DNA from: a candidate division WOR-3 bacterium
Lineage (GTDB): Bacteria > Hydrothermota > Hydrothermia > Hydrothermales > Hydrothermaceae
Assembly (NCBI GenBank): GCA_039803745.1
Contig: JBDRZD010000001.1
Span: forward strand, 2,146-66,145
Direction: 5' to 3'
Length of the DNA stretch: 64,000 bases
In this document: piece after piece, positions 20,788 to 51,987 of the stretch
How positions within the stretch are numbered: the first letter of the stretch is position 1
Layout: each line of letters starts with the position of its first letter
Program-made: the position numbers and the translations under genes
Notes under the pieces: model-generated
What the model was told of the DNA's origin: nothing
What the model saw: only the letters and a program-made list of their open reading frames with translations
The model's database searches: none

Positions 20788-23517
20788 ATGAAAATAGATG
20801 AAAAAAAATTAAGAATTATCCTTTTTTCTTCTGTTACATTTTTTGTATTCATAATATATTTTTTAACAACAGCACCTACAGTAGTTTTCTGGGATGTAGG
20901 TGAGTTCCTTGCAACTTCCTATATTCTTGGTATACCCCATCCACCAGGAACTCCTCTTTATGTAATCCTTGGCAGGTTCTTTTCCATTCTTCCCTTACCT
21001 TTAAATACAATTAAAAAGATAACACTTATTGCAATTCTTTCAGGTGCTTTTTCAGCAGGATTTGCTTATATAATAACAGTAAAGATAATTGATTTATTTA
21101 GAGGAAATGTTTCAAAATGGATACAGCATTTATCAGGAATTGTTGCAGGGCTTATATCTCCATTTGCCTATACAACATGGTGGTCAAGCATTGAAGCAGA
21201 AACTTATGCACCTTCAAACTTTTTTATGCTCCTTTCAACCTATCTTGCCCTCCTTTGGTGGGAAAACAGAGAAAAAAATGATTCTGTTAAATATCTTATT
21301 TTAATAATCTATCTTTTAGCACTTGGTTCAGGTATCCATCTTTCCGCCCCTTTTATATTTCCTGCAATGTTTGTTTTTGTTCTTTTTACAAAACCCAAAA
21401 TAGTTCTTGATTTTGAACTTCTTGGAACATTTTCATCTTTTTTAATTCTTATTTCAGCGATATTTCCTACTTTTACACCGCCTTCATGGGGAAAAGCAAT
21501 AGTATTTTATCTCTTAGGGGCAGGTGGTGGAGCCATATTTCTTTATGCAAAGAAATATTTTAAAGAGTTTGGATTTAAGGAAGGCATTTTCTTTGCGTTA
21601 GTTACAATCTCAATTGTTTCTGCCTATATGGGTTATGTATTTCTCTTTGTAATTGGTTCCATTCTTACCTTTTTATCTATTCTTATCTTTGGTAAATTGT
21701 ATCTTGAGTATAAGGGAGTAAGTTTAATCCTTGCCTTAATTGCTGTTTCGGCGGAATTCTATCTCCTAATAAGAGCACATCATAATCCATCAATAAATGA
21801 ATCTGATCCAAAAACATGGCAGGCATTCTGGGATGTCCTTTTAAGAAAACAATATCCACCTGCTGATGTATTCCCAAGGAAAGTGCCTTTTTTTGAACAA
21901 TTAAAACTTTTCTGGACATATTTTGCAGGAAGACCTGGTGATATAGGTATGCCTCCTCAGTATGTTCCATTAATTTTTATTTTAGGATTTATAGGTTTTG
22001 CATTGCATATTGCCTATGAAAGAAAAAGTTTTTCCCTTCTTGGAACAGCACTTATTTTAACAACACTTGGTCTTATTTTTGTTTTGAATTTAAAATATTC
22101 TGCAACAGATCCAAGACCTTATATACCTGAAGAACTCAGGGAAGTAAGGGATAGGGACTATTTCTTCATACCAGGTTTTTTCTATTTTGGAATATATGCA
22201 GGGATTGGATTTTTTGGTGTTTTTAAACTTGCTATAGAAAATCTAAAGTTTTTTAGGAAAATCAGCATTTATGTTGCTTTAATCTTTGCTTTACTTTTAC
22301 CTTTATGGCAGATTTCAGCCTATTATAAAATGGTGGATAGGTCAAGAAATTATTCCTGTGAGGATTATGCATATAATCTTTTAAACTGTGCAGAGGATAA
22401 AGGTGTTCTTTTTACAAATGGAGACAATGATACATTCCCTTTATGGTGTGCTCAAGAGGTTCTTGGAATCAAAAAATCTGTAATTATTGCAAATTTATCC
22501 CTTTTAAACACAAACTGGTATAATAAACAACTTAAAAGACTTGGTGTCCCTTTCTATTTTACAGAGGAGGATATGGATAAATTAACACCATTTATAGGTC
22601 CTGATGGTGAGATTGTTCTTGTTAGAGATTTAGTTATAAGGGATATGCTTGCAGCAAATTTTGGCTATGAACTTCCAAAAGATCCAAAGGAATATGTTAC
22701 ACTTCCAAGGATTGGTTTAAGATTTCCCAAAATATATCTTTCTCCTGCTGAGGAGTTTGCTCAAAAGGTTATAGAAGGAAGGAAGCCAAAATTGCCCATA
22801 TATTTTTCAATAACCTGTGAAACAAAAGTTTATAGGGGATTTAAAAATTATTTAATTCTTGAAGGAATGGTTTATAGAGTTGTTCCCTATAAAGTAAATA
22901 CAGAAACCCCTCTTGGCTATGCTGTTGATATGGAAAAAACAGATTCTCTATTCTTTAAGGTTTTTAAATATAGAGGATTCACTGATGAAAATAAATTCTT
23001 CATAGATAGAACCCATCAGAGAATTCTCTCAAATTACCGTGCACCACTTACAGTTCTTGCCATTCTTTATTTTGAAAAAGATGATGTGGAAAGAGCAATA
23101 AATACAATTGAATTTGCTTTAAATTTTGAGGGCAATAAAAATTTGATGGATAAGGATGACAAAAGAATTTCTTACTTTATAAAACTTCAACTTGCTCAAT
23201 TCAGTATAAAGGGTTCTTATTATGACAGGGCTATATCTATTTGTAATGAACTTTTAAAAGAAGAAAAAAATAGCATTGTTTATACTTTAATGGGAGATGC
23301 CTATATGGGGAAGGGGGAGTTAAATTTGGCAAAGAATTATTATAATCTTGCTTTAAATATACCCCCGCCTTTTATGAAAACCTATGCTTCCCTTATGGAA
23401 CTTTATTCAATGGAAAACAAAAGAGATAGTTTAAAGATTATTTTTGAAATGGCGAAAAAGAGATTTGGAGAAAATCCCAATCTTGATTCCTTAAAGGCGA
23501 AATATAAAATTGATTGA
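20788..23517 (+). CDS. DUF2723-family polytopic membrane protein (PMT/GT39-like fold) with C-terminal TPR repeats
   Basis: 909 aa. The N-terminal signature TAPTVVFWDVGEFLATSYILGIPHPPGTPLY matches DUF2723, followed by more than 10 TM helices. The last ~200 aa look TPR-like (GDAYMGKGELNLAKNYYNLALNI). Confidence 0.65.
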   Translation: MKIDEKKLRIILFSSVTFFVFIIYFLTTAPTVVFWDVGEFLATSYILGIPHPPGTPLYVILGRFFSILPLPLNTIKKITLIAILSGAFSAGFAYIITVKIIDLFRGNVSKWIQHLSGIVAGLISPFAYTTWWSSIEAETYAPSNFFMLLSTYLALLWWENREKNDSVKYLILIIYLLALGSGIHLSAPFIFPAMFVFVLFTKPKIVLDFELLGTFSSFLILISAIFPTFTPPSWGKAIVFYLLGAGGGAIFLYAKKYFKEFGFKEGIFFALVTISIVSAYMGYVFLFVIGSILTFLSILIFGKLYLEYKGVSLILALIAVSAEFYLLIRAHHNPSINESDPKTWQAFWDVLLRKQYPPADVFPRKVPFFEQLKLFWTYFAGRPGDIGMPPQYVPLIFILGFIGFALHIAYERKSFSLLGTALILTTLGLIFVLNLKYSATDPRPYIPEELREVRDRDYFFIPGFFYFGIYAGIGFFGVFKLAIENLKFFRKISIYVALIFALLLPLWQISAYYKMVDRSRNYSCEDYAYNLLNCAEDKGVLFTNGDNDTFPLWCAQEVLGIKKSVIIANLSLLNTNWYNKQLKRLGVPFYFTEEDMDKLTPFIGPDGEIVLVRDLVIRDMLAANFGYELPKDPKEYVTLPRIGLRFPKIYLSPAEEFAQKVIEGRKPKLPIYFSITCETKVYRGFKNYLILEGMVYRVVPYKVNTETPLGYAVDMEKTDSLFFKVFKYRGFTDENKFFIDRTHQRILSNYRAPLTVLAILYFEKDDVERAINTIEFALNFEGNKNLMDKDDKRISYFIKLQLAQFSIKGSYYDRAISICNELLKEEKNSIVYTLMGDAYMGKGELNLAKNYYNLALNIPPPFMKTYASLMELYSMENKRDSLKIIFEMAKKRFGENPNLDSLKAKYKID

Positions 23518-26163: not shown

Positions 26164-26172
26164 GGGGTGTTT

Positions 26173-28239
26173 ATGAAGGTTTTAAAAAATATAATGATAT
26201 TTTTTACAGGGATCCTTTTCCTTTTATGTGTGAGAATTGAAAGAAGACCTGTGCCAGGGAGTGAAAAAGGAGGAATTCTAAGAGTGGGAATGGTAAAAGA
26301 GCCCCAGAATTTGAATCCAATTTTCCCTCCCCTTTTAGAGCCAAATCCCTTTTATGATCTTATATTTCAACCACTCTTTAGAATAGAAAAGGGAAAAGTA
26401 ATTCCCTGTCTTGCTGAGTCCTGGGAATTTTCAGAAGATTTAAAATCGATAACTTTTTATTTAAGAAAAAATGTTAAATGGCATGATGGAGAAGAATTTA
26501 CTTCAGAAGATGTTATTTTTACTTATAATCTCATAATTGATCCAGAGATAAACTCTCCTTTGAGGTCTCAATTCAGGTTTATTACAAGGGCTACTCCTCT
26601 CGGGAAATATGCTGTGAAATTTGATTTTTCAAAAATTTATTTATATGAACTTTTTGATTGCAATTTCTATCCTTTACCCTCTCATTTATTAAAAGATAAA
26701 AAAGAAATAAGTAAGTTTTCAGAAAATCCAGTAGGTATTGGTCCTTATAAATTAAAAAGATGGATAAAGGGAAATTTAATTGAACTTGAAGCAAATGAAT
26801 CTTATTTTCTTTTTATTCCACCTATTAAAACAATTTATTTCAAATTTTATCCTTCCCCTGAAATAGTTTCTCTTGCTTATGAACAGGGAAGAGTTGATAT
26901 AGCCCTTGATCTTACACCAAGGGAAATCAATTACCTAAAAGAAAAGAATAAAAATTTTAAAACGTCTCCTGGTAATAGAGTGTTTTTTATAGGTTTTAAT
27001 TTACAAAAGTTTCCTTATAATGACATAAACTTCCGAAAGGCCATAAATCTTTTGATAAATAAAAGCGAGATTATATCAAAAGTTATGGAAGGGTATGCAG
27101 AGATAACTTTTTCCCCTATTCCTTCTAATCACTGGGCGTATGATTCCACATTGAGTGATGCAAAGGTTGATTTAAGTGGAGCAAAAAGAATTCTTGAAAG
27201 TATTGGTTTTAAAAATACTGATAGAGATCCCTATCTTGAACTTTTGGGAAAAGATTTTACCTTAGAAATCATCACTGAAGATGAACCTGAAAAGATAAAA
27301 ATTGCTGAAAGTATTAAAAAATATGTTGAGGATGTAGGGATAGCATGCGAGGTTAATGCCCTTTCAGGTCTGGATTTTGTTAAAAGACTTAGGGAAAGAA
27401 ACTTTAGTATTTATCTTTTCTCATGGACCTGTGAAGAAAAAATTGATTTTACTCCTTTATGGCATTCTCAATATGGAATATTCAACTTTACGGGTTTTAA
27501 AAATGAGGAACTTGATAAGGCTATTGAAAATTCAATTCTTACTATAAATCAGATAGAAAGTAAAAGAAATTTTAGGCTTGCACAGAGAATACTCAATGAA
27601 AATTTACCAGCCATTTTCTTATTTACTAACAAAAACTTAATTGCTTATTCTGAAAGGGTTAAAGGGCTTGATGCATACCTTGATTTTCCAATACAAAATC
27701 TGGATGTTGTTTATATTCCAAAGGAGATTCAAGAAGTAAGGGTTGAGTTTGAAATAGAAGAAACTAAAGAAGTTAAAAAGGAAGAAGCCCCTCTTCCACC
27801 ACCTCCCCCAAAAGAAGCTGTTCCACCTGTTCGTGCTGAGGAAATTTTAAGGGCTGAGCTTGTAAAAAGGGAAGCACCGCCTCCTCCTCCACCTGAAGTA
27901 AAAGAAGAAACTCCTCCACCTGCCCCTGAGGTTAAAGAAGAAGTTCCACCACCAAAACCTGAAGAGCCAAGAATTGTTGCAGAGGCAAAGATCTTAAAAG
28001 GAGTTCAACCAGAATATCCTGAAATAGCAAAAAAATTAGGTTTAAAAGGAATGGTTATTGTGAGAGTCCTTGTAGACAAAAATGGGAAAGTTATAGATGC
28101 ACGTATTTTGAAATCATCAAATTATCCTATCCTTGATGAGGCTGCTTTAAATGCCTCAAAGGAATTTATTTTTGAACCTGTGAAAGATGAGGAAGGAAAA
28201 CCTGTTGAATTTTTTACAACAATACCATTCAGATTCTAA
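26173..28239 (+). CDS. Fusion protein: lipoprotein-type solute-binding protein family 5 (Opp/Dpp-like) + proline-rich TonB-like linker + TonB C-terminal domain
   Basis: Likely start at ATG 26173, after a GGGGG run. The signal peptide has an LLC lipobox. The SBP_bac_5 body runs ~500 aa (RVGMVKEPQNLNP...). It then continues in frame into EEAPLPPPPPKEAVPP...EAPPPPPPEVKEETPPPAPEVKEEVPPPKPEEP, and then PEYPEIAKKLGLKGMVIVRVLVDKNGKVIDARILKSSNYPILDEAALNASKEFIFEPV, a classic TonB_C pattern. Confidence 0.6.
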   Translation: MKVLKNIMIFFTGILFLLCVRIERRPVPGSEKGGILRVGMVKEPQNLNPIFPPLLEPNPFYDLIFQPLFRIEKGKVIPCLAESWEFSEDLKSITFYLRKNVKWHDGEEFTSEDVIFTYNLIIDPEINSPLRSQFRFITRATPLGKYAVKFDFSKIYLYELFDCNFYPLPSHLLKDKKEISKFSENPVGIGPYKLKRWIKGNLIELEANESYFLFIPPIKTIYFKFYPSPEIVSLAYEQGRVDIALDLTPREINYLKEKNKNFKTSPGNRVFFIGFNLQKFPYNDINFRKAINLLINKSEIISKVMEGYAEITFSPIPSNHWAYDSTLSDAKVDLSGAKRILESIGFKNTDRDPYLELLGKDFTLEIITEDEPEKIKIAESIKKYVEDVGIACEVNALSGLDFVKRLRERNFSIYLFSWTCEEKIDFTPLWHSQYGIFNFTGFKNEELDKAIENSILTINQIESKRNFRLAQRILNENLPAIFLFTNKNLIAYSERVKGLDAYLDFPIQNLDVVYIPKEIQEVRVEFEIEETKEVKKEEAPLPPPPPKEAVPPVRAEEILRAELVKREAPPPPPPEVKEETPPPAPEVKEEVPPPKPEEPRIVAEAKILKGVQPEYPEIAKKLGLKGMVIVRVLVDKNGKVIDARILKSSNYPILDEAALNASKEFIFEPVKDEEGKPVEFFTTIPFRF

Positions 28240-31549: not shown

Positions 31550-32419
31550 ATGGCAATTTTCCTTTCCCATGATACAAGAGTTTTAGTTCAGGGAATTACT
31601 GGAAGGGATGGTTCCTTTCATACAAAGCAAATGCTTGATTATGGAACAAAAATTGTTGCAGGTGTAACCCCTGGTAAAAAAGGTGAGAATGTTCATGGTG
31701 TCCCTGTTTATGATTCTGTTATTGAGGCTGTAAGGGAAAAAGGAGCAAATACTTCAATAATTTTTGTTCCAGCAAAGTTTGCACAAGATGCAATTTATGA
31801 GGCAATAGATGCAGGTATAAATTTAATTGTTGTTATAACAGAAGGTATTCCAGCACTTTGCATGGCAGAAATAAAAAGTTATATAAAAGGCAAAGATGTA
31901 AGAATAATAGGACCAAATTGCCCGGGAATAATTGCTCCTTCTATTTCAAAGGTTGGAATAATGCCGGGACATATATTTAAAAAAGGGAAAATCGGTGTTG
32001 TTTCAAGAAGCGGAACGCTTACCTATGAAGTTGTATTTCATTTATCAAAAAGGGGATTAGGACAGTCCACAGTGATAGGAATTGGAGGTGATCCTGTGAT
32101 TGGAACAAAGTTTATTGATGTATTAAAGGAGTTTGAAAAAGATCCCGAGACAGAAGGTATAGTTTTAATAGGAGAGATTGGTGGCACTGATGAAGAAGAT
32201 GCTGCAGAATTTATAAAATCAAATATTTCAAAACCTGTTGTTGCATTTATTGCTGGAAGAACTGCACCTCCTGAAAAAAGAATGGGACATGCAGGAGCAA
32301 TAATTTCAGGTGGTAAAGGAACTGCTGAAAGTAAAATAAGAGCTTTTGAGAAAGCAGGTATTCCTGTTGCAACCGAGCCCGAGGAAGTCGCAGAAATAAT
32401 GAGTAAAATTTTGAAATGA
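31550..32419 (+). CDS. sucD: Succinyl-CoA ligase alpha subunit
   Basis: 289 aa: [37 protein letters not shown], phosphohistidine loop MGHAGAII, and an AGG RBS upstream. No beta-subunit gene is adjacent. Confidence 0.85.
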
Positions 32420-32991
32420 AATTATTTTTAATTTTAATTTTTTCTCTTTCCTGGGAAGAAATCAAAGAAGAGTATAAAAATTTAGAAAATATTTATGGGA
32501 AGGTAAGAGAAATTATTTATAGTGAAGGGATACCTGCATGTACCCTGATTGGTAAGATTTATGTGAAAAGAGATTTATTTAAAATGGTTATTGAAAAACC
32601 CGAAAGTCAGATTATATATTCCACAAAGGATAGTACCTTGATTTATTTTCCTTCCTGGAAAGAAGTTCAGGTTTCAAAAACACCAAAATTTATATCAGAT
32701 TTCTTTATCTTAAACATTGATGAATACGCTGATTCTATTTTCTTTGGAGAAAAGGATTTTAAAATAGAGATTTTTTTGAAAAAGAATTTAGATTTACCTT
32801 ACAAAAAAATAATTGTAATTTTAGAAAAAAATAATAAAGATTTAAAAAATCTTATTTTAGTAGAAGGAGATGTTATTTTTGAGTTTACCTTTCTTTTATT
32901 TAAAAAGAACATGAAATTTAGCGAAGAAACCTTTAAAATTTTTTTACCCGAAGGGGTTAGAAAAGTTAAGGTAAGTGAATTTGACAATTAG
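32416..32991 (+). CDS. Exported LolA-like protein (weak call)
   Basis: 191 aa with a signal peptide. The pattern [41 protein letters not shown] resembles the LolA/LppX-fold consensus. Confidence 0.4.
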
Positions 32992-33026: not shown

Positions 33027-33920
33027 ATGAAAAACGGATTTTATATTAAAATATTAAGAAAAAGAGGAGATTTAAAGGGCAAAGATTTTTTTGTCCCTTT
33101 AATTTTATTTAAATTTTTGTTTTCTTTTTCCATTTTTATTTTATTTTACCTTATATTTGCAACCTATATTTTTGTCAAAAAAGAAAAAGAAAAGAAAGAT
33201 TTTAGATATTATGCAGAGGAAAACAGAAAACTTAAAAATAAACTTGAAGATATAGAAAAAAAATTGAATAAAATTAAAGATGATATGATAGACTTGATAG
33301 AAAAACAAAATAGGTTGAGAAATTATTTAGATTTCGAGCCTATAAGTCTTGAAATACTTAATATGCCTATAGGTGGGATTCCAAAGAAAAAGGAAAAGAT
33401 AGAACAGATTGAAGAAAGGATAGATTATATGATGAATTTGGTTAATATGCAGGAGAAAGAAATAAATAATTTAAAATATTTCCTTGAAAAAAGTGAAGAT
33501 TTGAGAAAAAGGACACCAAGCATCTCCCCTGTAAAGAGCGCATTTGTAACTGCAAAATTCGGTTATAGAGAGGATCCTTTTACAGGGATTATAAAATTTC
33601 ATAAAGGAATTGATATAGCGGGTCCAAAAGGCACACCCATTTTTGCTACTGCTGATGGCATTGTAAAATATGCGGGATGGAAAGAAGGGCTCGGGCTTAC
33701 AGTGGAAATCGACCATGGTAATGGATTTATTACAGTTTATGGTCATAATGATAGAATTTTAGTAAAGCCCTTTCAAAGAGTTAGAAGAGGTGATGTAATA
33801 GCAACGATGGGCTCAACAGGTCTTGCAACAGGTGTTCATCTTCATTATGAAGTGAAACTTTTTGAAAAAAATTTGAATCCAATATATTATATAATTCCTG
33901 AAGAAGAATATTTTGATTAA
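33027..33920 (+). CDS. M23-family peptidase with N-terminal TM helix and coiled coil (EnvC/NlpD-like)
   Basis: 297 aa: HKGIDIAGPKGTPIFATADG...VYGHN...GSTGLATGVHLHYEV. Confidence 0.7.
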   Translation: MKNGFYIKILRKRGDLKGKDFFVPLILFKFLFSFSIFILFYLIFATYIFVKKEKEKKDFRYYAEENRKLKNKLEDIEKKLNKIKDDMIDLIEKQNRLRNYLDFEPISLEILNMPIGGIPKKKEKIEQIEERIDYMMNLVNMQEKEINNLKYFLEKSEDLRKRTPSISPVKSAFVTAKFGYREDPFTGIIKFHKGIDIAGPKGTPIFATADGIVKYAGWKEGLGLTVEIDHGNGFITVYGHNDRILVKPFQRVRRGDVIATMGSTGLATGVHLHYEVKLFEKNLNPIYYIIPEEEYFD

Positions 33921-33925
33921 AAAGG

Positions 33926-36661
33926 ATGCTTGAAATTTTAATTTTATTTTTACTTGGGTTTGGACAGAATAAAATTCAAACAAAAAATCTAAAATGGGAA
34001 ATATGTGAAACTCCACATTTTATGATTTACTTTACAAAAGGTGGGGAGCCTCTTGTTGATTTTGCAGTACCTGTTCTTGAAAATACATATACAAGGCTTT
34101 CCAATATGCTTGGTATTGATGTAAAAACAAAAGTTCCTGTTATAATTTATAATTCTCCAAATGATTTTAGGGAAACAAATATAATTCTTGACTTGATAGA
34201 AGAAGGGATTGGTGGATTTACAGAGTTTTATAAAACAAGGGTTGTTGTTCCTTTTGATGGTTCTTATAGTTCTTTTGAACATGTACTTATGCATGAGCTT
34301 GTCCATGTATTTGAATTTAAATTATTTTATACAGGTATTTATGAACTTGCTCAGGAGCCTTTCTTCTCTATTCCTCTTTATATTATGGAGGGATTCCCTG
34401 AATATGTCTCATTAGGTCTTGATCCTGAAACTGAAGGTTTTGTTAGAGACCTTATATTAAACGACCTTTTCCCATCTTTAAAGAATCTCGAATATTATGG
34501 CGGATACATTGTTTATAAACTTGGCCAAGTATTTTTCTATTTTTTATATGATACATATGGAGAAGAAAAAATAGCTGAATTTTTACACGCCTTAAAATTT
34601 AGAAAATCCGTTGATAAAGCCTCTTTGAAAGTATTTGGAATTTCCCAAGATGCTCTTTCAGAAAGATTTTCTTATTATTTAAAAAAGAAAATTTACAAAG
34701 AGATTGAAAAGTATGATTATCCTGAAGATATAGGTAAGAAGATAACAGATCATAAAAAAGAGGGTGGCTTCATGAATGTTGGTCCTGCAATTTCTTATGA
34801 TGGTTCTTATATTACTTTTCTTTCCGATAGAAAAGATTATTCCGATATTTATCTTATCTCAATATACGCTCCTGAAAAAGTAAAAAAAATTGTTTCTGGA
34901 GAAAGGGTTCCCTCACTTGAGAATCTGCACCTTTTGAGACCCGGCATATGTTTTTCACCAGATGGAAAATACTTAATTTTTACATCCCATGGCAACGGAA
35001 AGGAAATGATAAACTTTTACGATCTAAAAACAAATAAAATAATTAAATCCTATTCCTATAAAGAATTTGACGGAATTTATACACCTGATTTCTCGCCCGA
35101 CGGGAGTAAAATAGTTTTTGTTGGAATAAAAGATGGTAAAAGTGACCTTTATATTCTTAATCCATCAAATGGTAAAATACTCGAAAGAATTACAAATGAT
35201 TTCTTTGACGAAAGGGATCCTTTATTTATGGAAGAAGAGATCCTTTTTGTTTCTGATAGAACTCAAGACGGAAGCTATGGAAGTTATGCAATATTCTCAT
35301 ATTCTTTAAAGGATAAATCTATAAGGAAGATAACCCCTTATCTTGGAAACATATCTCATCCCTTCAAAATAGAGGATAGTATTTATTTGTTTGTTTATAA
35401 AGAAAAGGATGCCTCCAACATATTTGCTTATGATAAGTTAAATAACAAGTTTTACCAAATTACAAGTTTCCCAACCTGGATAAGAGAGACAGGTTATGCA
35501 AAGAAAAGTAATGACATTGTATGTAGTATTTTATGGAAGAATGGATACAATATTTTTTATATAAAAAAAGAAAAAATAATTGAAAAAAATAAATGGAAAG
35601 AAGTAGAATTAGAAGAAAAACCTGGAAAGAAAAGAAAAGGAACAGAAAATGCTGAATGGAAGGAATATTCAAATTTCTTTACAATAGATTGGCTTGGTGG
35701 AACTATTGGATACGCGCCTCAATATGGTTATTATGGTAATGTTGGTTTGCAAGCCTCTGATATTCTTGGTAATTTGCGAATTCAATTCTTTACTGACATG
35801 ACAGGAGGAGATTTAACTGTTTCAAACTGGCTTTTTGGAATTTATTATTTACCAAAGAAAATAGATTATCTCTTGGAAATATATCAATTTTTCCCTTTAT
35901 ACCCCTATGACTCAATTTATTATTCCTATGAAAGAAATTTAGGCTTTAATTTTATATCTTTAATCCCTTTAAATAAATTTTTCAGGTTTGAAATTGGAAC
36001 CGGTTTCACTTATATTGAAAGAATAATTGATAGGGACCTTTATTTTCCCATTGATAGAATGGATTATTTCATAAATTTACCCTTTTATTTTGGGACAGTA
36101 TTTGATCGTTCAACTGATTTTTATTATTTAGGAGTGCAAGATGGGGAAAGATGTTATTTAGGTTTTGAATTTGGTTTTATCCCTGAAAATTATTTGAAGT
36201 TTGTTTTTGATTCAAGAAAATATTGGAGAATTACACCCCGTTCAAATTTTGCATTTAGAATCTTATTCGCTGGAAAGCAGGATGGAGAAAGAATATTGCC
36301 ATTCTGGCTTGGTGGCCCAAATAGATTAAGGGGATATGATTTATTTGAACTTGTCTATCCCTATATATTCTTATCCAGTTTTGAATTAAGGGTGCCTTTC
36401 CTGGATAATTTAAAACTATCTTTTCCTTTACCTTTAAAAATTGGTAATATAAGAGGTATTTTCTTTTTTGATACAGGTATTGGGTTTAAGGAGATTGATA
36501 TGGCAAGTTTTAAAAAAGAAATATTTCATTCCGACTTGGGTTATGGATTTAGATGGAATATCGGATATTTTGATTTAAAATTTGATTTCGCATACAAGAT
36601 AGAAAAAAATAAATTTTTTAAGAAACCACTTATATGGATTACTTTTGGAAGGGATTTCTAA
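33926..36661 (+). CDS. Large outer-membrane chimera: N-terminal HExxH gluzincin-like domain, PD40/TolB-like beta-propeller repeats, C-terminal Omp85/surface-antigen-type beta-barrel
   Basis: 911 aa. Signal peptide. HVLMHELVHVFEF, with Glu residues ~20-30 aa downstream. PD40-like repeats (FSPDGKYLIFTSHGNGK, FSPDGSKIVFVGIKDGKSDLYILNPSNGK, LFVSDRTQDGSYG). The last ~300 aa are Gly/aromatic-rich alternating beta-strands ending ...ITFGRDF (terminal Phe). Confidence 0.55.
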   Translation: MLEILILFLLGFGQNKIQTKNLKWEICETPHFMIYFTKGGEPLVDFAVPVLENTYTRLSNMLGIDVKTKVPVIIYNSPNDFRETNIILDLIEEGIGGFTEFYKTRVVVPFDGSYSSFEHVLMHELVHVFEFKLFYTGIYELAQEPFFSIPLYIMEGFPEYVSLGLDPETEGFVRDLILNDLFPSLKNLEYYGGYIVYKLGQVFFYFLYDTYGEEKIAEFLHALKFRKSVDKASLKVFGISQDALSERFSYYLKKKIYKEIEKYDYPEDIGKKITDHKKEGGFMNVGPAISYDGSYITFLSDRKDYSDIYLISIYAPEKVKKIVSGERVPSLENLHLLRPGICFSPDGKYLIFTSHGNGKEMINFYDLKTNKIIKSYSYKEFDGIYTPDFSPDGSKIVFVGIKDGKSDLYILNPSNGKILERITNDFFDERDPLFMEEEILFVSDRTQDGSYGSYAIFSYSLKDKSIRKITPYLGNISHPFKIEDSIYLFVYKEKDASNIFAYDKLNNKFYQITSFPTWIRETGYAKKSNDIVCSILWKNGYNIFYIKKEKIIEKNKWKEVELEEKPGKKRKGTENAEWKEYSNFFTIDWLGGTIGYAPQYGYYGNVGLQASDILGNLRIQFFTDMTGGDLTVSNWLFGIYYLPKKIDYLLEIYQFFPLYPYDSIYYSYERNLGFNFISLIPLNKFFRFEIGTGFTYIERIIDRDLYFPIDRMDYFINLPFYFGTVFDRSTDFYYLGVQDGERCYLGFEFGFIPENYLKFVFDSRKYWRITPRSNFAFRILFAGKQDGERILPFWLGGPNRLRGYDLFELVYPYIFLSSFELRVPFLDNLKLSFPLPLKIGNIRGIFFFDTGIGFKEIDMASFKKEIFHSDLGYGFRWNIGYFDLKFDFAYKIEKNKFFKKPLIWITFGRDF

Positions 36662-36667
36662 ATTTCT

Positions 36668-36949
36668 ATGAAAGAAGGTAATGGGAATTTGCTGGCACTT
36701 TTATTTCCCTTTATAATACTTTTTGTATTTTTCTATTTATTTATAATTCTTCCGCAACAAAGAAGAGAGAAAAAACACAGGGAAATGATCAAAAATTTAA
36801 AAAAGGGAGATTATGTGTTTACATCCTCAGGAATTTATGGGACAGTATCAAAAATTGATGAAAAAACTGTTATTTTAAAACTATCTGAAAATGTTTTTGT
36901 TAAATTTGATAAATCAGCAATTCAGGAAGTTCTAAAGAAAGAAGAATAA
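36668..36949 (+). CDS. yajC: Preprotein translocase subunit YajC
   Basis: 93 aa with one TM helix (LLALLFPFIILFVFFYLFIILPQQRREKK) and a YajC-like KKGDYVFTSSGIYGTV motif. Confidence 0.75.
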   Translation: MKEGNGNLLALLFPFIILFVFFYLFIILPQQRREKKHREMIKNLKKGDYVFTSSGIYGTVSKIDEKTVILKLSENVFVKFDKSAIQEVLKKEE

Positions 36950-39447: not shown

Positions 39448-39892
39448 AATAATTGCTGAAAATAAAAAGGTTTATAGAGATTATGAGATTCTTGAAGAAA
39501 TAGAAGCAGGGATAGAACTTTTAGGTGGCGAGGTTAAATCCATTAAGAATGGCGCAATATCTTTAAAAGATTCTTTTGTCAAATTTGAAGGGGGTGAAGC
39601 CTTTATTTTGAATTTATACATAGCACCTTATAAATATTCAGGAAGTATTCCTTACGACCCTGAAAGAAAAAGGAAACTTTTACTTAAAAAAGCAGAAATA
39701 AAAAGGCTCATTGGAAAAGTGAAAGAAAGAGGACTTACAATTGTTCCCTTAAAGGTTTATTTAAAAAGAAAATGGATAAAGGTTTTAATAGGTCTTGTTC
39801 GCGGAAGGAAAAAATATGAAAAAAGGCAAATAATAAAGGAAAGAGAAATAAAAAGGGAGATCGAAAGAGAACTCAAAAAAAGGTATGGTTAA
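39434..39892 (+). CDS. smpB: SsrA-binding protein
   Basis: 152 aa: IAENKKVYRDYEILEEIEAGIELLGGEVKSIK.G..SLKDSFV...GEAFILNLYIAPY and a basic C-terminal tail. Confidence 0.85.
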   Translation: MEMIKIIAENKKVYRDYEILEEIEAGIELLGGEVKSIKNGAISLKDSFVKFEGGEAFILNLYIAPYKYSGSIPYDPERKRKLLLKKAEIKRLIGKVKERGLTIVPLKVYLKRKWIKVLIGLVRGRKKYEKRQIIKEREIKREIERELKKRYG

Positions 39893-40925
39893 TTTAATTT
39901 TAATTTTTTCCCTGTTGAATCTTTTTCCACCTGAAATTTATAATTTTGGGGATAGTGTAAAAGTTGTTATTAAAAAAGATGGAGAAATTGGGGGGGATAT
40001 AGAAAAGAAGATAAGTAATAAAGATTTTATAATAGTTTTTCCTTTATCTTCTTATGAGTTTCCGGATGAATATGAAATCAAAAGTGATTATTTAAAAAAG
40101 GTTTTATTTCATAAAGAAGGAGATAATACTGTTGTAAAATTTATAATTACTGAAAATGTGAAAAAATACAGAATTAAATCCTATAAAGATAGAATAGAGA
40201 TTTTATTTTTGGGAGAAAAAATAAATAAAATTGAAAAATTTTTAGATAGAAAAATAAAAAAAATAATTATAGATCCCGGTCATGGTGGTGAAGATCCAGG
40301 AGCATGTGGAAAAGGAGGCACTTTTGAAAAAGATATAAACCTTGAAATTGCGAAAATTCTAAAGGAGATGATCGAAAAAGAACTTAAAATTGGGGTTATT
40401 TTAACCAGAGAAAAAGATACATTTATTTCTCTTTCCCAAAGGTCTCGTATAGCAAATAAAGAGAAGGGTGATATTTTTCTTTCAATCCATTGTAATGCTT
40501 CAAAAAAAATAGAATCAAAAGGGGTTGAGGTTTATTTTTTATCAGAAGCAAAGACTGACTGGGAAAGGGCAGTTGAGGCACTTGAAAATGCCTCATTAAA
40601 ATTTGAAATGCCTGAAAAAGAGGTAAAAACAGTTCTTGATGCAATACTTCTCGATCTTGCCCAAACCGAGTTTTTAAAGGAATCTCAAAAGCTTGCAGAA
40701 TTCTTACAAAAAAATCTTGTGAATAATAAAGATGAGGATAGGGGGGTTAAACAGGCAGGTTTTTATGTCCTTTATGGAGTTTATATGCCCTCTGCACTTA
40801 TTGAAGTAGGCTTTATAACAAATCCTGAGGAAGAAAAAAAATTAAAAAATAAAAATTATCAAAGGGAAATTTGTAAAAAAATAATAAGGGGGTTAAAAGA
40901 ATTTATAGAGTGGTATCAGAAGTGA
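39885..40925 (+). CDS. N-acetylmuramoyl-L-alanine amidase (Amidase_3, AmiC-like) with an N-terminal AMIN-like domain
   Basis: 346 aa with IIIDPGHGGEDPGACGKGG, FLSIHCNAS and EVGFITNPEEE. Confidence 0.8.
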   Translation: MVNLILIFSLLNLFPPEIYNFGDSVKVVIKKDGEIGGDIEKKISNKDFIIVFPLSSYEFPDEYEIKSDYLKKVLFHKEGDNTVVKFIITENVKKYRIKSYKDRIEILFLGEKINKIEKFLDRKIKKIIIDPGHGGEDPGACGKGGTFEKDINLEIAKILKEMIEKELKIGVILTREKDTFISLSQRSRIANKEKGDIFLSIHCNASKKIESKGVEVYFLSEAKTDWERAVEALENASLKFEMPEKEVKTVLDAILLDLAQTEFLKESQKLAEFLQKNLVNNKDEDRGVKQAGFYVLYGVYMPSALIEVGFITNPEEEKKLKNKNYQREICKKIIRGLKEFIEWYQK

Positions 40926-43377: not shown

Positions 43378-44046
43378 ATGTTAATTTATCTCTTGATATC
43401 ATTGAAAGCATTAATTTTTTGTAAAGGAGAATTTTTCATTTTTGATTCCGAGAAAAATTATTTAAAAACTCAAAATAAAAAAATATTTCTTGAAGAAAAT
43501 TTTTACAATGCCTATGAAATAAAATCCGATTTTGTTTGGATTTATATTCTCTCAAAAGAAGGGCTTTATGTGATAAACCCTGTTGATGGTAAAATTTTAT
43601 CTTTTTATAAATTTAAAAAAAATTATTCAAAATTTGCAAAAGATGACAAAGGTAATTTTTATTTTCTTGATAGTGTATCAGGGAAAATCAAGGTTATAAA
43701 CTTTACAAGAAAGGATTCTTTTTATCTTGATTTTTCTCCTTCTAAAAATGTCCTGTCCATGGAATTTATAAATGATAAGTTATATTTTCTTTATCATGAC
43801 GAAATTGTTTCTTTTGATGTTTTTGAAAAAAAAGTTCAAAAAGAAGAAAAAGGTAAATGGGATGGATTTAGAAAATGTATTCGCAAATTATTCTTATGGA
43901 AAGAAAACTGTATAAAGATTAAAAATGGTGAAGAAACTATCTTTTGTATAAACTTTAAAATAGATGACCTGATTTTTTTAAAAGATACTATTTTTATACT
44001 AACTTCTGATTCAATTCTAAAATTACCCTTTAAGGAAAATAAATGA
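43378..44046 (+). CDS. Hypothetical exported protein
   Basis: 222 aa with an N-terminal signal peptide and beta-rich composition. Its start is 8 nt after the STAND gene's stop. Confidence 0.4.
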   Translation: MLIYLLISLKALIFCKGEFFIFDSEKNYLKTQNKKIFLEENFYNAYEIKSDFVWIYILSKEGLYVINPVDGKILSFYKFKKNYSKFAKDDKGNFYFLDSVSGKIKVINFTRKDSFYLDFSPSKNVLSMEFINDKLYFLYHDEIVSFDVFEKKVQKEEKGKWDGFRKCIRKLFLWKENCIKIKNGEETIFCINFKIDDLIFLKDTIFILTSDSILKLPFKENK

Positions 44047-46994
44047 AGTTTTTATTTTTTATTCTCATTTCAAAAATAATAAGAGATACAATCTTACCAG
44101 AAATATCTTTTATAATTTTAAAAACACCTGTTATAAATAGTATTAAGGTTTATTCAAAGAAAAATATTGAATATCAGGTTAAAGGTGATACACTTTTTTT
44201 GAAGGGATTTTATGAAAGTGACACAGTTTATGTTGAATATGAAAATATAGAAATTGATGCGGTTTATAAAAAAAACGAAATTTTATTGAAAGAAGAAGAG
44301 AAGATTTTAATAAAACCTGTTGAAAGCAAAAAAGAATTTGAGGAGATTAAATTAAAGGGTAATAAAGAGGTTGGTTTTAAAATAGAAGAGGGTAATTTTT
44401 CACTTGTTCAAAGTACAAATCTTAAACTGGATGGTAAAATAGGGAATAATATTGAAGTTGAGGGTGTTTTTCAAGATGAGAACTTACCTTCAGAAGGAAC
44501 AGTCTCTCTTTCAGAGCTCGAGCAGGCTTATTTTAATATTAAATCTCCTTATTTTAAAACAAAAATCGGTGATTTCTTTCTTAGAGGAGAAAACATTGAG
44601 AGAAAAATGCTTGGAATGGAAGCCGAAGGTAAAACAAAAGGTTTTTTTTTAAAAATAGGAACAGGTTATGGAAAGGGAACATTTGAAAGTATAAAAATAG
44701 ATGTAGTTCCGGGGAAAAATGGACCTTATTTTTTAGGAATTCAAAGATATGAAAGGATAGTTCCCGGCTCTGAAAAGGTATATCTTGATAATAAACTCTT
44801 AAAAAGTGGAAAGGATGAAGATTATATAATTGATTATGAAAGGGGAATAATAGTTTTTAATCCAAAAGTGAATATTTCAAATACTTCAAATTTAAAAATA
44901 GATTTTGAAAAAATCGAAGGCGGTTTTGATAAGTATTATTTTTCAGAATGCTTTTCTCCAAATTTTAAAAATTTTAATTTAAATTTTAATTATTTTTTAG
45001 AGAAGGATTTTGAAAAGAACCCCCTTTTCTCTTTATCCGATAGTGATAAGATATTTTTAAAAACCATAGGTGATACACAAAAAATTTTATACACAAAAGG
45101 ATATGAATATGTAGGTGAAGGAAAAGGTGATTATATAAAAAAAGGGGATACACTTATATATGTAGGAGAAAAAAATGGAAATTATGTTGCTCAATTTATC
45201 TTTGTTGGTGAAAATAAAGGAGATTATATATTCAACGATTTAAAGGGCTGTTTTGAATATGTTGGAAAAGATAAAGGAGATTATATTCCCCGGAAGATTC
45301 TCTATTTACCACAAAGGAAAAATTTTTTCTCTTCTTCCATTTCCTTTAAACAGCAGAAAATAGAATTTTTTCTTTCTGAATTTGATAAGAACATTTATTC
45401 AAACTTAAATGATAGGGATAATGTTGATTTTGGAATTAAGACAAAAAATAAATTTTATTACAAAGAAAATAACTATGAAAGTGGAGTAAATTTATCTCTA
45501 AAATATTTTGGTAAAAACCTTTTTTTCCCTTTTAGAGAAAAGGAAGCAAATTATGAATTCTTGTGGAAGACAAAAGCAGAAGAAAGAAAAAGGGTTTTAC
45601 TTTCCCCTTATTTTATTTATAAAGATATCTTTAAATTACAAAATGAGATTGGATATTTAAGCACAGATTCAGGAAGTGTTAAGAGAGAAAGTTATGAATT
45701 TGAATTTTTAAAATATTTTAATACAAAAGAAACTTATGAGGAAATAAAGGGAAAAGAAAGGACATACAGGAACAGTTTTTTGATATCAAAAAAAATGAAT
45801 AAATATTTTGTGGAGTTCAAAAACATTTTTGAGAATTCAAATTTTAATTCTCTTTCAAAAGAAATTTCTTTTGGACATGATAATTTATTTTTTACCTTTT
45901 CAGAAAATTCGCTTTTTAAAAATCTATATATCCTCTCAAATTCAATAAATACTCTTTTAAGTTTTAAAAGCGTATTTTCTATAAGAGGAACTTTTAAATA
46001 CATATTTTCTAAACCTTACCTAAAAAAAATTAATAAGGATTATTTCTACAATTTTTTTTATAATCTTTTTCCTTATAAGGATTTAAGAATCAGTATAAAT
46101 GTAATTAAAAATCCGGAAATTGTTTCAGAAAAAAATATAGAATATATATTTGTTGGAGAAGGAAAAGGGAATTTCTCTTATGACTCTCTTACAAAAAGTT
46201 TTTATCCCGATGAAAACGGGAGTTATATAAAAAGAGAATTTTTTATTACAAAAGATGATAATGGCTATAAAAAAGGAATTTATTCAAAGTTAGAATTCTC
46301 GAAAGATATTTACTCAATTTTTTTAACACAGGATAGAGAGGAAAAGAAATTAAAAGAAAAAATTCTTTCAAGGAATGAAAATTATTCTCTTAATTTAAAT
46401 TTTGACCTTCCAATTTATACAAGTTTATATACTATTTATTCACAAGATGAAGATAAAGAATATTATCTTTATCCATTTAAAAGGCTTTCTTTTGAATGGA
46501 ATATAAATTTGAGGAGAGAACTCAAAGAATTTACTCCTGAAGCAGGATTTACTTATAAGTTTTCAGAGGATAAGGAACAGGAAAATGTTAAGGCAAGAAC
46601 AAGGGAATACAAATTTTTAACAGGGATAAGAAAAGGCTTTGAAAAGATTAATTTAAGGTTTTCCTTTAATTATGGAATTCAAAGAAATGAATCCCCTTTT
46701 TATTTTGGAACAAAAATAATGAAGAAGGATTATTTTGAACTTTTGCCGGGCATAAATTTTTTTATTTTTGGTACAGAAATAAGAGAAGAGATCTTTCTTA
46801 TTTTTCAAAATGTTAAAAATCCCTTTTCAAATATTTCTTTTTATGAAAAAGAAAAATGGAGGGTAGAGGAAAAGGTATCTTTATTAAAAAAAATAAGAGA
46901 GAACCTTGAAACAAGTCTTTCTTTTTTCTTAAAAATAGGGGAAAAAACAAAGACAAAGAGTTCTTTTAATTTTAATTTTATTGCCTATTTTTAA
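44043..46994 (+). CDS. Large exported repeat protein, probable outer-membrane beta-barrel
   Basis: 983 aa. Signal peptide. Four tandem ~17-aa repeats built on YVGEGKGDYI (YEYVGEGKGDYIKKGDTL / IYVGEKNGNYVAQFIF / VGENKGDYIFNDLKGCFE / YVGKDKGDYIP), with a further copy IFVGEGKGNFSY. The C-terminus is ...SFNFNFIAYF (aromatic-x-aromatic with terminal Phe). It overlaps the upstream ORF by 4 nt. Confidence 0.4.
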   Translation: MKFLFFILISKIIRDTILPEISFIILKTPVINSIKVYSKKNIEYQVKGDTLFLKGFYESDTVYVEYENIEIDAVYKKNEILLKEEEKILIKPVESKKEFEEIKLKGNKEVGFKIEEGNFSLVQSTNLKLDGKIGNNIEVEGVFQDENLPSEGTVSLSELEQAYFNIKSPYFKTKIGDFFLRGENIERKMLGMEAEGKTKGFFLKIGTGYGKGTFESIKIDVVPGKNGPYFLGIQRYERIVPGSEKVYLDNKLLKSGKDEDYIIDYERGIIVFNPKVNISNTSNLKIDFEKIEGGFDKYYFSECFSPNFKNFNLNFNYFLEKDFEKNPLFSLSDSDKIFLKTIGDTQKILYTKGYEYVGEGKGDYIKKGDTLIYVGEKNGNYVAQFIFVGENKGDYIFNDLKGCFEYVGKDKGDYIPRKILYLPQRKNFFSSSISFKQQKIEFFLSEFDKNIYSNLNDRDNVDFGIKTKNKFYYKENNYESGVNLSLKYFGKNLFFPFREKEANYEFLWKTKAEERKRVLLSPYFIYKDIFKLQNEIGYLSTDSGSVKRESYEFEFLKYFNTKETYEEIKGKERTYRNSFLISKKMNKYFVEFKNIFENSNFNSLSKEISFGHDNLFFTFSENSLFKNLYILSNSINTLLSFKSVFSIRGTFKYIFSKPYLKKINKDYFYNFFYNLFPYKDLRISINVIKNPEIVSEKNIEYIFVGEGKGNFSYDSLTKSFYPDENGSYIKREFFITKDDNGYKKGIYSKLEFSKDIYSIFLTQDREEKKLKEKILSRNENYSLNLNFDLPIYTSLYTIYSQDEDKEYYLYPFKRLSFEWNINLRRELKEFTPEAGFTYKFSEDKEQENVKARTREYKFLTGIRKGFEKINLRFSFNYGIQRNESPFYFGTKIMKKDYFELLPGINFFIFGTEIREEIFLIFQNVKNPFSNISFYEKEKWRVEEKVSLLKKIRENLETSLSFFLKIGEKTKTKSSFNFNFIAYF

Positions 46995-50005: not shown

Positions 50006-50746
50006 TTGGAAAAGATATTTGATAAAATAGCACCATATTATGATATTTTGATGCAGAATATAGATTATAAGGGATGGGCTCAGTATTTTATAAAAATTTG
50101 TGAACTTTTTAATGTATATCCCAAAAAAATACTTGATATTGCTTGTGGAACAGGAAGCGAGATTCTTTATCTTTCGGAAATGGGTTTCAATATTACAGGA
50201 ATTGATATTTCAGAAAAAATGCTTGAAATTGCAAAGGAGAAATTAAAAGATAGAAAAAATGTTCGTTTTTTCAAAATGGATATGAGAGATTTAAATCTTC
50301 ATGAGAAATATGATGCAGTTTTTTCTTTTTTTGATAGTATGAACTACATTTTAAATATAGATGATATGGAAAAATGTTTTAAAGGGGTTTATAATGTCCT
50401 TAAAGATGGTGGCATATTTATATTTGATATGAATACTTATTATTCTTTAAAAGAGATATGGGATAATTCTACCACTATTAAGGAGACAGGAAATATTTAT
50501 TCTATATGGAAGAATGAATGGAATGAAGAAGAAAGGATTTCCACTCTTAAACTCCTTTTAAATGTTAAAGAAAAGGATAAATCTTTTTTAATAGAAGAAA
50601 TCCATAAGGAAAAGGCTTATTTCCCTGACGAGATAGAAAATCTTTTAAAAAAAGTTTTTTTTAAAAAGGTCTATTTTTTTGATTTTAAAACTTTTAGTGA
50701 AATAAATGAGACAACAATAAGAATGGTTGTTGTTGCACTGAAGTGA
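50006..50746 (+). CDS. Class I SAM-dependent methyltransferase
   Basis: 246 aa. TTG start. ILDIACGTGSEILYLSEMGFNITGIDISEKML (motif I / post-I) and DAVFSFFDSMNY (motif II). Confidence 0.75.
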   Translation: MEKIFDKIAPYYDILMQNIDYKGWAQYFIKICELFNVYPKKILDIACGTGSEILYLSEMGFNITGIDISEKMLEIAKEKLKDRKNVRFFKMDMRDLNLHEKYDAVFSFFDSMNYILNIDDMEKCFKGVYNVLKDGGIFIFDMNTYYSLKEIWDNSTTIKETGNIYSIWKNEWNEEERISTLKLLLNVKEKDKSFLIEEIHKEKAYFPDEIENLLKKVFFKKVYFFDFKTFSEINETTIRMVVVALK

Positions 50747-51987
50747 TGTATATAGCAGATTTACATATTCATTCAAAATATTCAAGGGCAACAAGTCCTG
50801 ATATGGACATTGAAAACCTTTCAAGATGGGCTAAACTTAAGGGAATAAATCTACTTGGGACAGGGGACATAACTCATCCTGAATGGCTTAAAAATTTAAG
50901 AAATTTACTTAAGCCATCTATAAATGGTATTTTTGAATATGACGGTGTTGATTTTATACTTTCAGGTGAAGTCAGTCTTGTATATTCAAAATATAATAAA
51001 ACAAGGAAAATTCATATTGTAGTATGTTTTCCTGATTTTGAATCAGTTCTTAAATTTAATCAAAAAATTTCTCCTTATGGTTCTCTCAAGCAGGATGGAC
51101 GTCCAATCCTTTCACTGGAAACAGAAAATTTTGTTGAAATTCTTCTTTCTGCATGTAGTGATGCTATGATTATCCCTGCCCATATATGGACACCATGGTT
51201 TTCCCTTTTTGGCTCCAATTCTGGATTTGATAAAATAGAGGAATGTTTTGGCAAGTATCTTGATAAGGTTACTGCTCTTGAAACCGGACTCTCATCTGAT
51301 CCAGAGATGAATTGGAGAATTAAAGAGATTGATAATTTTTCACTTGTTTCAAATTCAGACTCCCATTCACCTTTAAGAATCGGAAGAGAGGCAAATTGCT
51401 TTAAAGAGAGGATGGATTACTTTGAATTAAAAAGAGTTTTAAAAGAAAAAGATAACAAAAAATTTCTTTTCACTATAGAATTTTATCCTGAAGAAGGCAA
51501 ATATCATTATGATGGTCATAGAAAATGTGGAGTGTCAATGCATCCAGAGGAAACAATAAAAAATGGATATCTGTGCCCTGTTTGTGAGAAGCCACTTACA
51601 ATTGGTGTTTTGCATAGGGTGATTATGCTTTCAACAAGAAAAGAAGGTGAAAAACCTCCAAAATTTGTGCCCTTTAAGAATCTTGTTCCACTTGATGAAA
51701 TAATATCAGAGGCAATAGGAGTTAATAAGGAATCAAAGATTGTGAGGGATGAATATCTCAAGATGATTTCCTATTTTGGGAATGAAATGGAAGTTTTGAT
51801 GAACGCTCCAATTGAAGAAATAGAGAATAAATTTAACTTTCGTGTAGCAAAAGGCATAAAGAATGTGAGAGAAAATTTGGTGAAGAAGATCCCGGGTTAT
51901 GATGGTGTATATGGTAAGATATGTGTCCTCGGGGAAAAAGAAGAAAAGGAAGAAACTAAAGAAAAAAAACAAATGAGTTTATTTTAA
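50743..51987 (+). CDS. PHP-domain protein resembling endonuclease Q (EndoQ)
   Basis: 414 aa. The ATG at 50746 overlaps the methyltransferase stop. YIADLHIHSKYSRATSPDMDIENLSRWAKLKGINLLGTGDITHPEWL (PHP His/Asp metal motifs), IIPAHIWTPWFS, SNSDSHSP, and a Cys/His cluster HRKCG...CPVCEKP...H. Size and motif order match archaeal and Bacillus EndoQ as I recall them. Confidence 0.55.
   Translation: MMYIADLHIHSKYSRATSPDMDIENLSRWAKLKGINLLGTGDITHPEWLKNLRNLLKPSINGIFEYDGVDFILSGEVSLVYSKYNKTRKIHIVVCFPDFESVLKFNQKISPYGSLKQDGRPILSLETENFVEILLSACSDAMIIPAHIWTPWFSLFGSNSGFDKIEECFGKYLDKVTALETGLSSDPEMNWRIKEIDNFSLVSNSDSHSPLRIGREANCFKERMDYFELKRVLKEKDNKKFLFTIEFYPEEGKYHYDGHRKCGVSMHPEETIKNGYLCPVCEKPLTIGVLHRVIMLSTRKEGEKPPKFVPFKNLVPLDEIISEAIGVNKESKIVRDEYLKMISYFGNEMEVLMNAPIEEIENKFNFRVAKGIKNVRENLVKKIPGYDGVYGKICVLGEKEEKEETKEKKQMSLF

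Follow-up and report, generated by a model that had tools for sequence, protein, structure and literature searches.

A protein of 911 residues, encoded on the plus strand at positions 33926–36661 of a 64,000-nucleotide stretch of contig JBDRZD010000001.1 (assembly GCA_039803745.1, candidate division WOR-3 bacterium; hereafter the window), was composed of an N-terminal metallopeptidase head, a TolB-like PD40 β-propeller, and a C-terminal Omp85-type β-barrel. Pfam matches (Peptidase_MA_2, PD40, and Omp85), an AlphaFold2 model, and fold searches agreed on this composition, as an earlier note on the same DNA had proposed. The protein was assigned to the WD40-Omp85 subfamily on the basis of an identical architecture, the same fold assignments, and overlapping taxa. 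In function, it may be an outer-membrane-anchored, periplasm-facing, and propeller-gated peptidase that processes envelope proteins or controls their quality. To this statement as a whole we give about an even chance of being right, with much higher confidence in its structural part and lower confidence in the class of substrate.

Overall architecture and conservation

The reading frame began with ATG, and an in-frame TGA at 33914–33916 blocked any upstream extension. At a genomic G+C content of ~30%, an open frame of 2.7 kb is far beyond chance, and the gene was regarded as real. Its product was essentially identical to a GenBank protein from a metagenome-assembled genome of candidate division WOR-3, named 'BamA/TamA family outer membrane protein', with one difference in the first 45 residues.

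The structure was modelled with AlphaFold2 using an alignment of 84 homologues as input, and the model had a predicted local distance difference test (pLDDT) score of 89.1 and a predicted template modelling (pTM) score of 0.88. It showed four parts: a head of mostly helices and a small sheet, a six-bladed propeller, a short linker, and 16 long strands. Conservation was assessed in a set of 84 homologues of 31–75% identity, to which the residue counts out of 84 given below refer. The mean pairwise identity was 47% in the head, 38% in the propeller, 36% in the barrel, and 17% in the linker, so that the peptidase head was the best-conserved domain.

An alignment of N-termini defined a short signal peptide, MLEILILFLLG (residues 1–11; 33926–33958, plus strand), of which residues 1–10 had pLDDT values below 50. 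Cleavage would be expected directly after it, and since the signal peptide contains no cysteine, the protein is not a lipoprotein. The mature N-terminus, FGxNKxQ (residues 12–18; 33959–33979), was conserved, and Gly13, Asn15, and Lys16 were invariant.

The metallopeptidase head

The head (residues 12–272; 33959–34741, plus strand) was assigned to the gluzincin metallopeptidases of clan MA(E). Pfam Peptidase_MA_2 matched residues 55–253 with 35.1 bits against a gathering score of 32.4, and in the model the domain spanned residues ~24–270, with helices predominant. The zinc-binding and catalytic motif HELVH (34292–34306, plus strand), with residues His123, Glu124, and His127, was invariant in 84/84 homologues. 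Glu155 (34388–34390, plus strand) of the sequence MEGxxEY, located 27 residues past His127, was likewise invariant in 84/84 and is the candidate third zinc ligand. The motif and the downstream glutamate, both of which the earlier note had picked out, were also kept in 35 cross-phylum sequences, and HExxH was present in 142/142 further cluster representatives. Other invariant residues of the head were Gly156, Tyr197, Gly200, and those of an EExGGFTE segment at residues 92–100.

When the sequence profile of the head was compared with the PDB, the sole find was an M9 collagenase (E=0.0019); the profile matched an M1 enzyme only at E=0.93. The weak alignment with the collagenase spanned HExxH and the EGxAEY segment that bears the third zinc ligand, and the ligand role of Glu155 is proposed because it aligned with this segment. 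In Pfam, no M9 or M1 family matched the head, the only match being the generic Peptidase_MA_2. Fold searches gave matches that included 3qnf, 4fgm, the tricorn-interacting factor F3 (1z1w), and the collagenases 4ar8 and 7wss, and the best structural matches were secreted collagenases and lugdulysin. The head had the thermolysin-like zincin catalytic fold. The earlier note had made its reading depend on a zincin fold around HExxH, and the helical model with its matches to M9 collagenases and M1 aminopeptidases bore this out. The head differed from both of these families in its identity of only 11–15%, in the absence of the M9 activator domain, and in the absence of the M1 N-terminal and C-terminal domains.

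The head is likely a catalytically competent gluzincin, as judged from its sequence. The invariance of His123, Glu124, His127, and Glu155, their retention across phyla, and the position of the head as the most conserved domain all argue for an active enzyme. The same observations make it highly improbable that a relic head without catalytic function sits on what is simply a structural outer-membrane protein. That explanation was considered because many Peptidase_MA_2 matches were marginal, as was the one here, and no evidence in its support was found.

The propeller and the linker

The propeller (residues 284–546; 34775–35563, plus strand) was formed by six blades with 24 strands in the model. 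Pfam PD40 matched with 53.8 bits against a gathering score of 20.9, and TolB was the closest structural relative in the fold search. Matches to the TolB families of NCBIfam were partial: TIGR02800 scored 72 bits against a cut-off of 343 and covered the propeller region only. Unlike TolB, the protein lacked the N-terminal domain that interacts with TolA, and its propeller shared one polypeptide with a peptidase and a barrel. An insertion between blades 1 and 2 carried an invariant pair, Glu332-x-x-His335 (34919–34930), in the sequence ExLHLLRPG. These two residues and the FGxNKxQ N-terminus might contact the active site of the head.

The propeller was followed by a charged and poorly conserved linker of 38 residues (547–584; 35564–35677, plus strand), which was 32–40 residues long in most homologues. 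A POTRA domain was sought between the propeller and the barrel, where neither a Pfam match nor a β-α-α-β-β element in the model was found.

The Omp85 barrel

The C-terminal domain (residues 585–911; 35678–36658, plus strand) was a 16-stranded β-barrel of the Omp85/BamA type that ended in a β-signal-like GRDF sequence. Its 16 long strands lay within residues 585–908 of the model. The earlier note had staked its reading on the C-terminus being a β-barrel, and the BamA-type strands upheld it. Pfam Omp85 (PF01103) matched residues 754–896 with 33.4 bits against a gathering score of 24. The family profile of the barrel matched BamA barrels of the PDB at E about 4e-8 and TamA barrels much more weakly, at E about 0.1. 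Among the NCBIfam equivalogs, none for BamA, TamA, or TolB passed for the whole protein, and the Omp85_fam match was weak (NF047779, 18 bits against 200).

Residues Arg802, Gly803, and Tyr804 formed the loop-6 RGY motif (36329–36337, plus strand) in the sequence GGPNRLRGY (GGxxxLRGY in the family), located in the long connection between strands β11 and β12 (residues 787–812). The arginine and the glycine were each present in 81/84 homologues and Tyr, Phe, or Trp in 74/84. On strand β13, residues Phe847, Asp849, and Gly851 formed an FxDxG motif (F-F-D-T-G; 36464–36478, plus strand; Phe in 84/84, Asp in 79/84, and Gly in 74/84), which aligned with FwDmG of BamA. Gly908, three residues before the terminal aromatic residue, was present in 78/84 homologues, and 83/84 ended in Phe, Trp, or Tyr. 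We take (V/I/L)RG(Y/F) in loop 6 together with FxDxG on β13 to be the hallmark motifs of Omp85 barrels. By its fold, its PF01103 and BamA-profile matches, and these motifs, the protein belongs to the Omp85 superfamily. The 16 strands, the loop-6 and β13 motifs, and the C-terminal aromatic residue were shared with BamA and TamA, from which the protein differed by the absence of POTRA domains and of an equivalog match and by the presence of an N-terminal enzyme and a propeller instead.

The retained RGY, FxDxG, and glycine signatures and the closer match to BamA than to TamA raise the question of whether the barrel is an active insertase or translocase, in which a BamB-like propeller would serve as a scaffold and the peptidase would trim or clear clients. 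The reported function of Sam50 without POTRA (cited in PMC4104836) would also fit. Such a machine is unlikely nonetheless: no POTRA domains are present for substrate receipt, the barrel was less conserved than the head, and neither a conserved neighbouring client nor a TamB partner was found, the TamB gene of the window being 16.8 kb away and unlinked. In addition, the family is patchy and has paralogues, with four entries from Rhodothermus marinus and three from Caldithrix abyssi in Table S3 of PMC4104836, unlike a core insertase.

Orientation of the head and propeller

The positions of the barrel motifs suggest a periplasmic location of the head and propeller. When strand 1 was taken to start from the periplasmic face, RGY fell between β11 and β12 and FxDxG on β13, as in BamA. 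To our knowledge, in every Omp85 protein of solved structure the domains that precede strand 1 are periplasmic. TolB and TolB-like propellers are periplasmic, which was also counted in favour of this orientation.

The opposite arrangement would resemble type Vd secretion, with the Omp85 barrel exporting its own peptidase–propeller passenger to the cell surface for the extracellular breakdown of proteins as nutrients. PlpD provides a precedent, as an N-terminal enzyme on an Omp85-type 16-strand barrel that is delivered to the surface (PMC4104836), and the resemblance of the head to secreted collagenases and lugdulysin, together with the flexible and poorly conserved linker, points the same way. 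PlpD is a patatin lipase with POTRA, whereas the present protein combines a zincin with a propeller; neither a patatin nor a POTRA match was found in it with Pfam, which sets it outside the type Vd (PlpD-like) class. PlpD-type proteins have the POTRA domain that is absent here (PMC4104836). To be exported, a passenger of 535 residues with a closed six-bladed propeller would need to be unfolded, and no energy source is known for its passage; the periplasmic habit of TolB-like propellers speaks against export, and the pTM of 0.88 suggests a fixed multidomain assembly and not a released passenger. Surface display is therefore considered doubtful.

Relationship to the WD40-Omp85 subfamily

In 2014, Heinz and Lithgow distinguished ten bacterial subfamilies within the Omp85/TpsB superfamily (PMC4104836). 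One of them, 'WD40-Omp85' or 'WD40-like', was defined by PF07676 repeats and PF01103 without POTRA, and includes UniProt members such as H1XQ58, D0MEQ5, and B0VIY2 (PMC4104836). The main text of that study likened the propeller to TolB and proposed a fusion like BamA with BamB. In its Table S3, members of the cluster matched the BamA/TamA barrel, TolB, and M1/M9 'aminopeptidase' structures, the best aminopeptidase matches being 1z5h (tricorn-interacting factor F3), 4kxd, 3qnf (ERAP1), 4fgm, and 4ar1 (collagenase) (PMC4104836). A paper of 2024 ascribed 'divergent WD40 and peptidase domains' to the subfamily (PMC11358297).

The present protein shared with this subfamily a PF01103 barrel preceded by PD40 repeats and the absence of POTRA (PMC4104836, Table S2). 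The fold assignments were the same, with 3qnf and 4fgm common to Table S3 and to the search with the head, and with F3 and collagenase present in both as different PDB entries, and the taxa overlapped in Ignavibacteria, Calditrichota, Cloacimonadota, and Cytophagia/Bacteroidota. It differed in three respects. It comes from candidate division WOR-3, which was unsampled in 2014; it is compact, with 911 residues against about 1030 in many phyla; and the invariance of the peptidase active site goes beyond the main text of 2014, which covers the propeller only. The 'Metallo' Omp85 subfamily of the same authors was ruled out as the home of the protein, because it is defined by PF00149 and not by a zincin. 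The window adds to the subfamily a member from WOR-3, with its structure described more cleanly, and not a new kind of system. The earlier note had regarded a protease and propeller on a BamA/TamA-like barrel as novel, a claim that the subfamily of 2014 and its many relatives do not support.

More than 1168 full-length homologues were scored, and relatives were encoded in at least 554 species genomes. They occurred in WOR-3, Hydrothermales, Stahlbacteria, Zixibacteria, Ignavibacteria, Kapaibacteria, Bacteroidota/Cytophagia, and Marinimicrobia, as well as in KSB1, Latescibacteria, Delongbacteria, Cloacimonadota, Calditrichota, Eisenbacteria, and Glassbacteria. The peptidase–propeller–barrel design is common in bacteria of the Fibrobacteres–Chlorobi–Bacteroidetes (FCB) group. 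The head domain alone retrieved 1282 clusters at 50% identity (E<=1e-30). It was nearly always N-terminal in proteins of 900–1130 residues, and 104 of the 111 long head-bearing proteins ended in Phe, Trp, or Tyr, which indicates that the three-part fusion is old and stable.

Many homologues in KSB1, Zixibacteria, Eisenbacteria, and other phyla were about 1030–1190 residues long, with roughly 100–280 extra residues, which in one homologue (P0105) separated the PD40 region from the barrel; those of WOR-3 and Hydrothermales were the compact version. With a Caldithrix-like homologue (L069) as the query, the only matches were metagenomic KSB1 proteins. The names in databases were inconsistent and included 'BamA/TamA family', 'PD40 domain-containing', 'peptidase MA family metallohydrolase', and 'Tol biopolymer transport system component'.

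Gene neighbourhood

The gene was part of a long co-directional run that extended from ~16 kb to 56.5 kb of the window. The sign of the GC skew switched at ~16000, from about -0.3 to +0.3, and back at ~56500. Because these switches fell exactly at the flips of gene orientation, the skew tracks the coding strand.

The upstream neighbour (33027–33920, plus strand; Pfam Peptidase_M23, 118 bits) encoded a membrane-anchored M23 (LytM) peptidase, and its stop codon at 33920 left a 5-nt spacer before the ATG of the fusion gene. Besides the M23 domain, the protein had a transmembrane segment and about 110 residues of coiled coil. Both catalytic motifs, HxxxD (HKGID) and HxH (HLH), were intact, and the best partial NCBIfam matches were MepM and ShyC. 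Its architecture is EnvC-like, but its sequence looks nearer to the active endopeptidases of the MepM/ShyA type than to the degenerate EnvC to which it had been likened. The downstream neighbour was yajC (36668–36949, plus strand; Pfam YajC, 100.5 bits; TIGR00739, 101 bits), which started 6 nt past the stop of the fusion gene and was followed by def and fmt.

The conservation of this arrangement was examined by tblastn of the window neighbours against 80 related loci and by clustering of the flanking open reading frames. The M23 gene was found upstream in 3/80 loci and yajC downstream in 2/80, and the clustered flanking frames contained no universal partner. The commonest neighbours each occurred in a minority: MurA at position -1 in ten loci, a GWxTD protein at +1 in nine, and DsbD in seven. 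Proteins with type IX secretion system tails were scattered among the rest, and the neighbourhoods were variable and mostly housekeeping. A family-wide functional link with the M23 peptidase was therefore ruled out; the M23 gene is a lineage-specific neighbour, not a family-wide partner, and the argument from the operon, on which the earlier note had leaned, is weak.

A role at the cell wall or in the Tol-Pal system was also weighed, in which the propeller would bind Pal, an OmpA-type protein, or peptidoglycan, and the head would cut the peptides that link the outer membrane to the wall. The occurrence of an M23 endopeptidase gene in this window and in 3 of the 80 loci, of MurA immediately upstream in ten, and of an Amidase_3 gene at 39885–40925 of the window would suit such a role, as would a propeller closest to TolB. 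At 72 bits, the protein fell well short of the 343 bits that the TolB equivalog requires and lacked the N-terminal domain of TolB, and the variable, mostly housekeeping surroundings do not favour a wall function. We know of no M1- or M9-like gluzincin that acts on stem peptides containing D-amino acids. A wall or Tol-Pal role thus appears rather improbable.

The LolA-like gene that the earlier note placed upstream (32416–32991) remained a weakly supported candidate, with matches far below the cut-offs (Pfam, E=0.11; TIGR00547, E=1e-3) and no sequence match in the PDB; its assignment of yajC downstream held. A TamB-like gene was confirmed ~17 kb away, as stated before (53457–56537, plus strand; PF04357, 66.9 bits), starting 16.8 kb downstream of the fusion gene. 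No Omp85 or TamA gene was adjacent to it, and the gene directly upstream (51989–53473) encoded an aromatic amino-acid lyase.

Several other frames of the window had notable domain compositions. The gene at 26167–28239 (plus strand, 690 residues) joined SBP_bac_5 (residues 77–421) to a C-terminal TonB_C domain (residues 614–690), an unusual pairing. At 10348–11667 (minus strand, 438 residues), AP_endonuc_2, a xylose-isomerase-like TIM barrel, was fused to Amidase_2, an N-acetylmuramoyl-L-alanine amidase domain. The product of 20788–23517 (plus strand, 909 residues) contained a TMEM260-like protein O-mannosyltransferase domain and TPR repeats. Two plus-strand frames, at 44043–46994 (983 residues) and 50743–51987 (414 residues), had no Pfam match at E<=0.001.

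Proposed mechanism and implications

In the mechanism that we favour, the precursor would be exported by Sec, and its BamA-type barrel would be inserted in the outer membrane, presumably by the β-barrel assembly machinery (BAM) of the cell. The flexible linker of ~35 residues would tether the propeller and the head just under the outer membrane, most likely on its periplasmic side. The propeller would probably be a platform that binds substrates or filters them by size, as propellers do in other pairings with peptidases, and at the inner surface of the outer membrane the gluzincin head would cleave substrates that are unfolded or resemble peptides. The resulting role in envelope-protein processing or quality control would be comparable to that of BepA, which binds BAM and degrades stalled outer-membrane proteins and thus sets a precedent for a zinc protease at an Omp85 machine (PMC13067283). 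BepA, too, pairs an HExxH zinc protease with a non-catalytic domain for protein interaction, and it works in the periplasm, physically at an Omp85 machine (PMC13067283). It differs in being a soluble and separate protein of family M48 with a TPR domain, whereas the protease described here is covalently fused to the barrel and carries a propeller.

Four points weigh against this mechanism. Across the 80 related loci, no conserved operon partner pointed to a substrate. Literature searches for Omp85 with PD40 and peptidase, for WD40-Omp85, and for Peptidase_MA_2 (PF13485) found no functional or structural study of the subfamily, only the catalogue of 2014 and mentions in passing. The conserved loop-6 and β13 motifs suggest that the barrel may be more than an anchor. 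The N-terminal enzyme of PlpD, carried on an Omp85 barrel, is displayed at the surface of the cell (PMC4104836). The idea of a BamA-like barrel that carries an envelope protease or a device for quality control is nevertheless plausible, and related ideas are already in the literature; nothing in the protein would surprise an Omp85 specialist.

A more speculative arrangement, a 'protease on insertase', is suggested by the retained RGY, FxDxG, and terminal GxxF motifs. Here the barrel would have a working BamA-like lateral gate, at which the tethered and propeller-gated zincin would cleave clients, and Glu332, His335, and the FGxNKxQ N-terminus could contribute to an active site that is composite or autoregulated. 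We consider this arrangement quite improbable. If true, it would represent a POTRA-independent, single-polypeptide route to outer-membrane quality control or maturation in the FCB group and some other diderms.

The WD40-Omp85-like family is large, ancient in the FCB superphylum, and invariant in its active site. Its function, if worked out, would reveal how proteolysis is coupled to an Omp85 barrel in diderms other than Proteobacteria, and whether Omp85 barrels without POTRA are anchors or machines.

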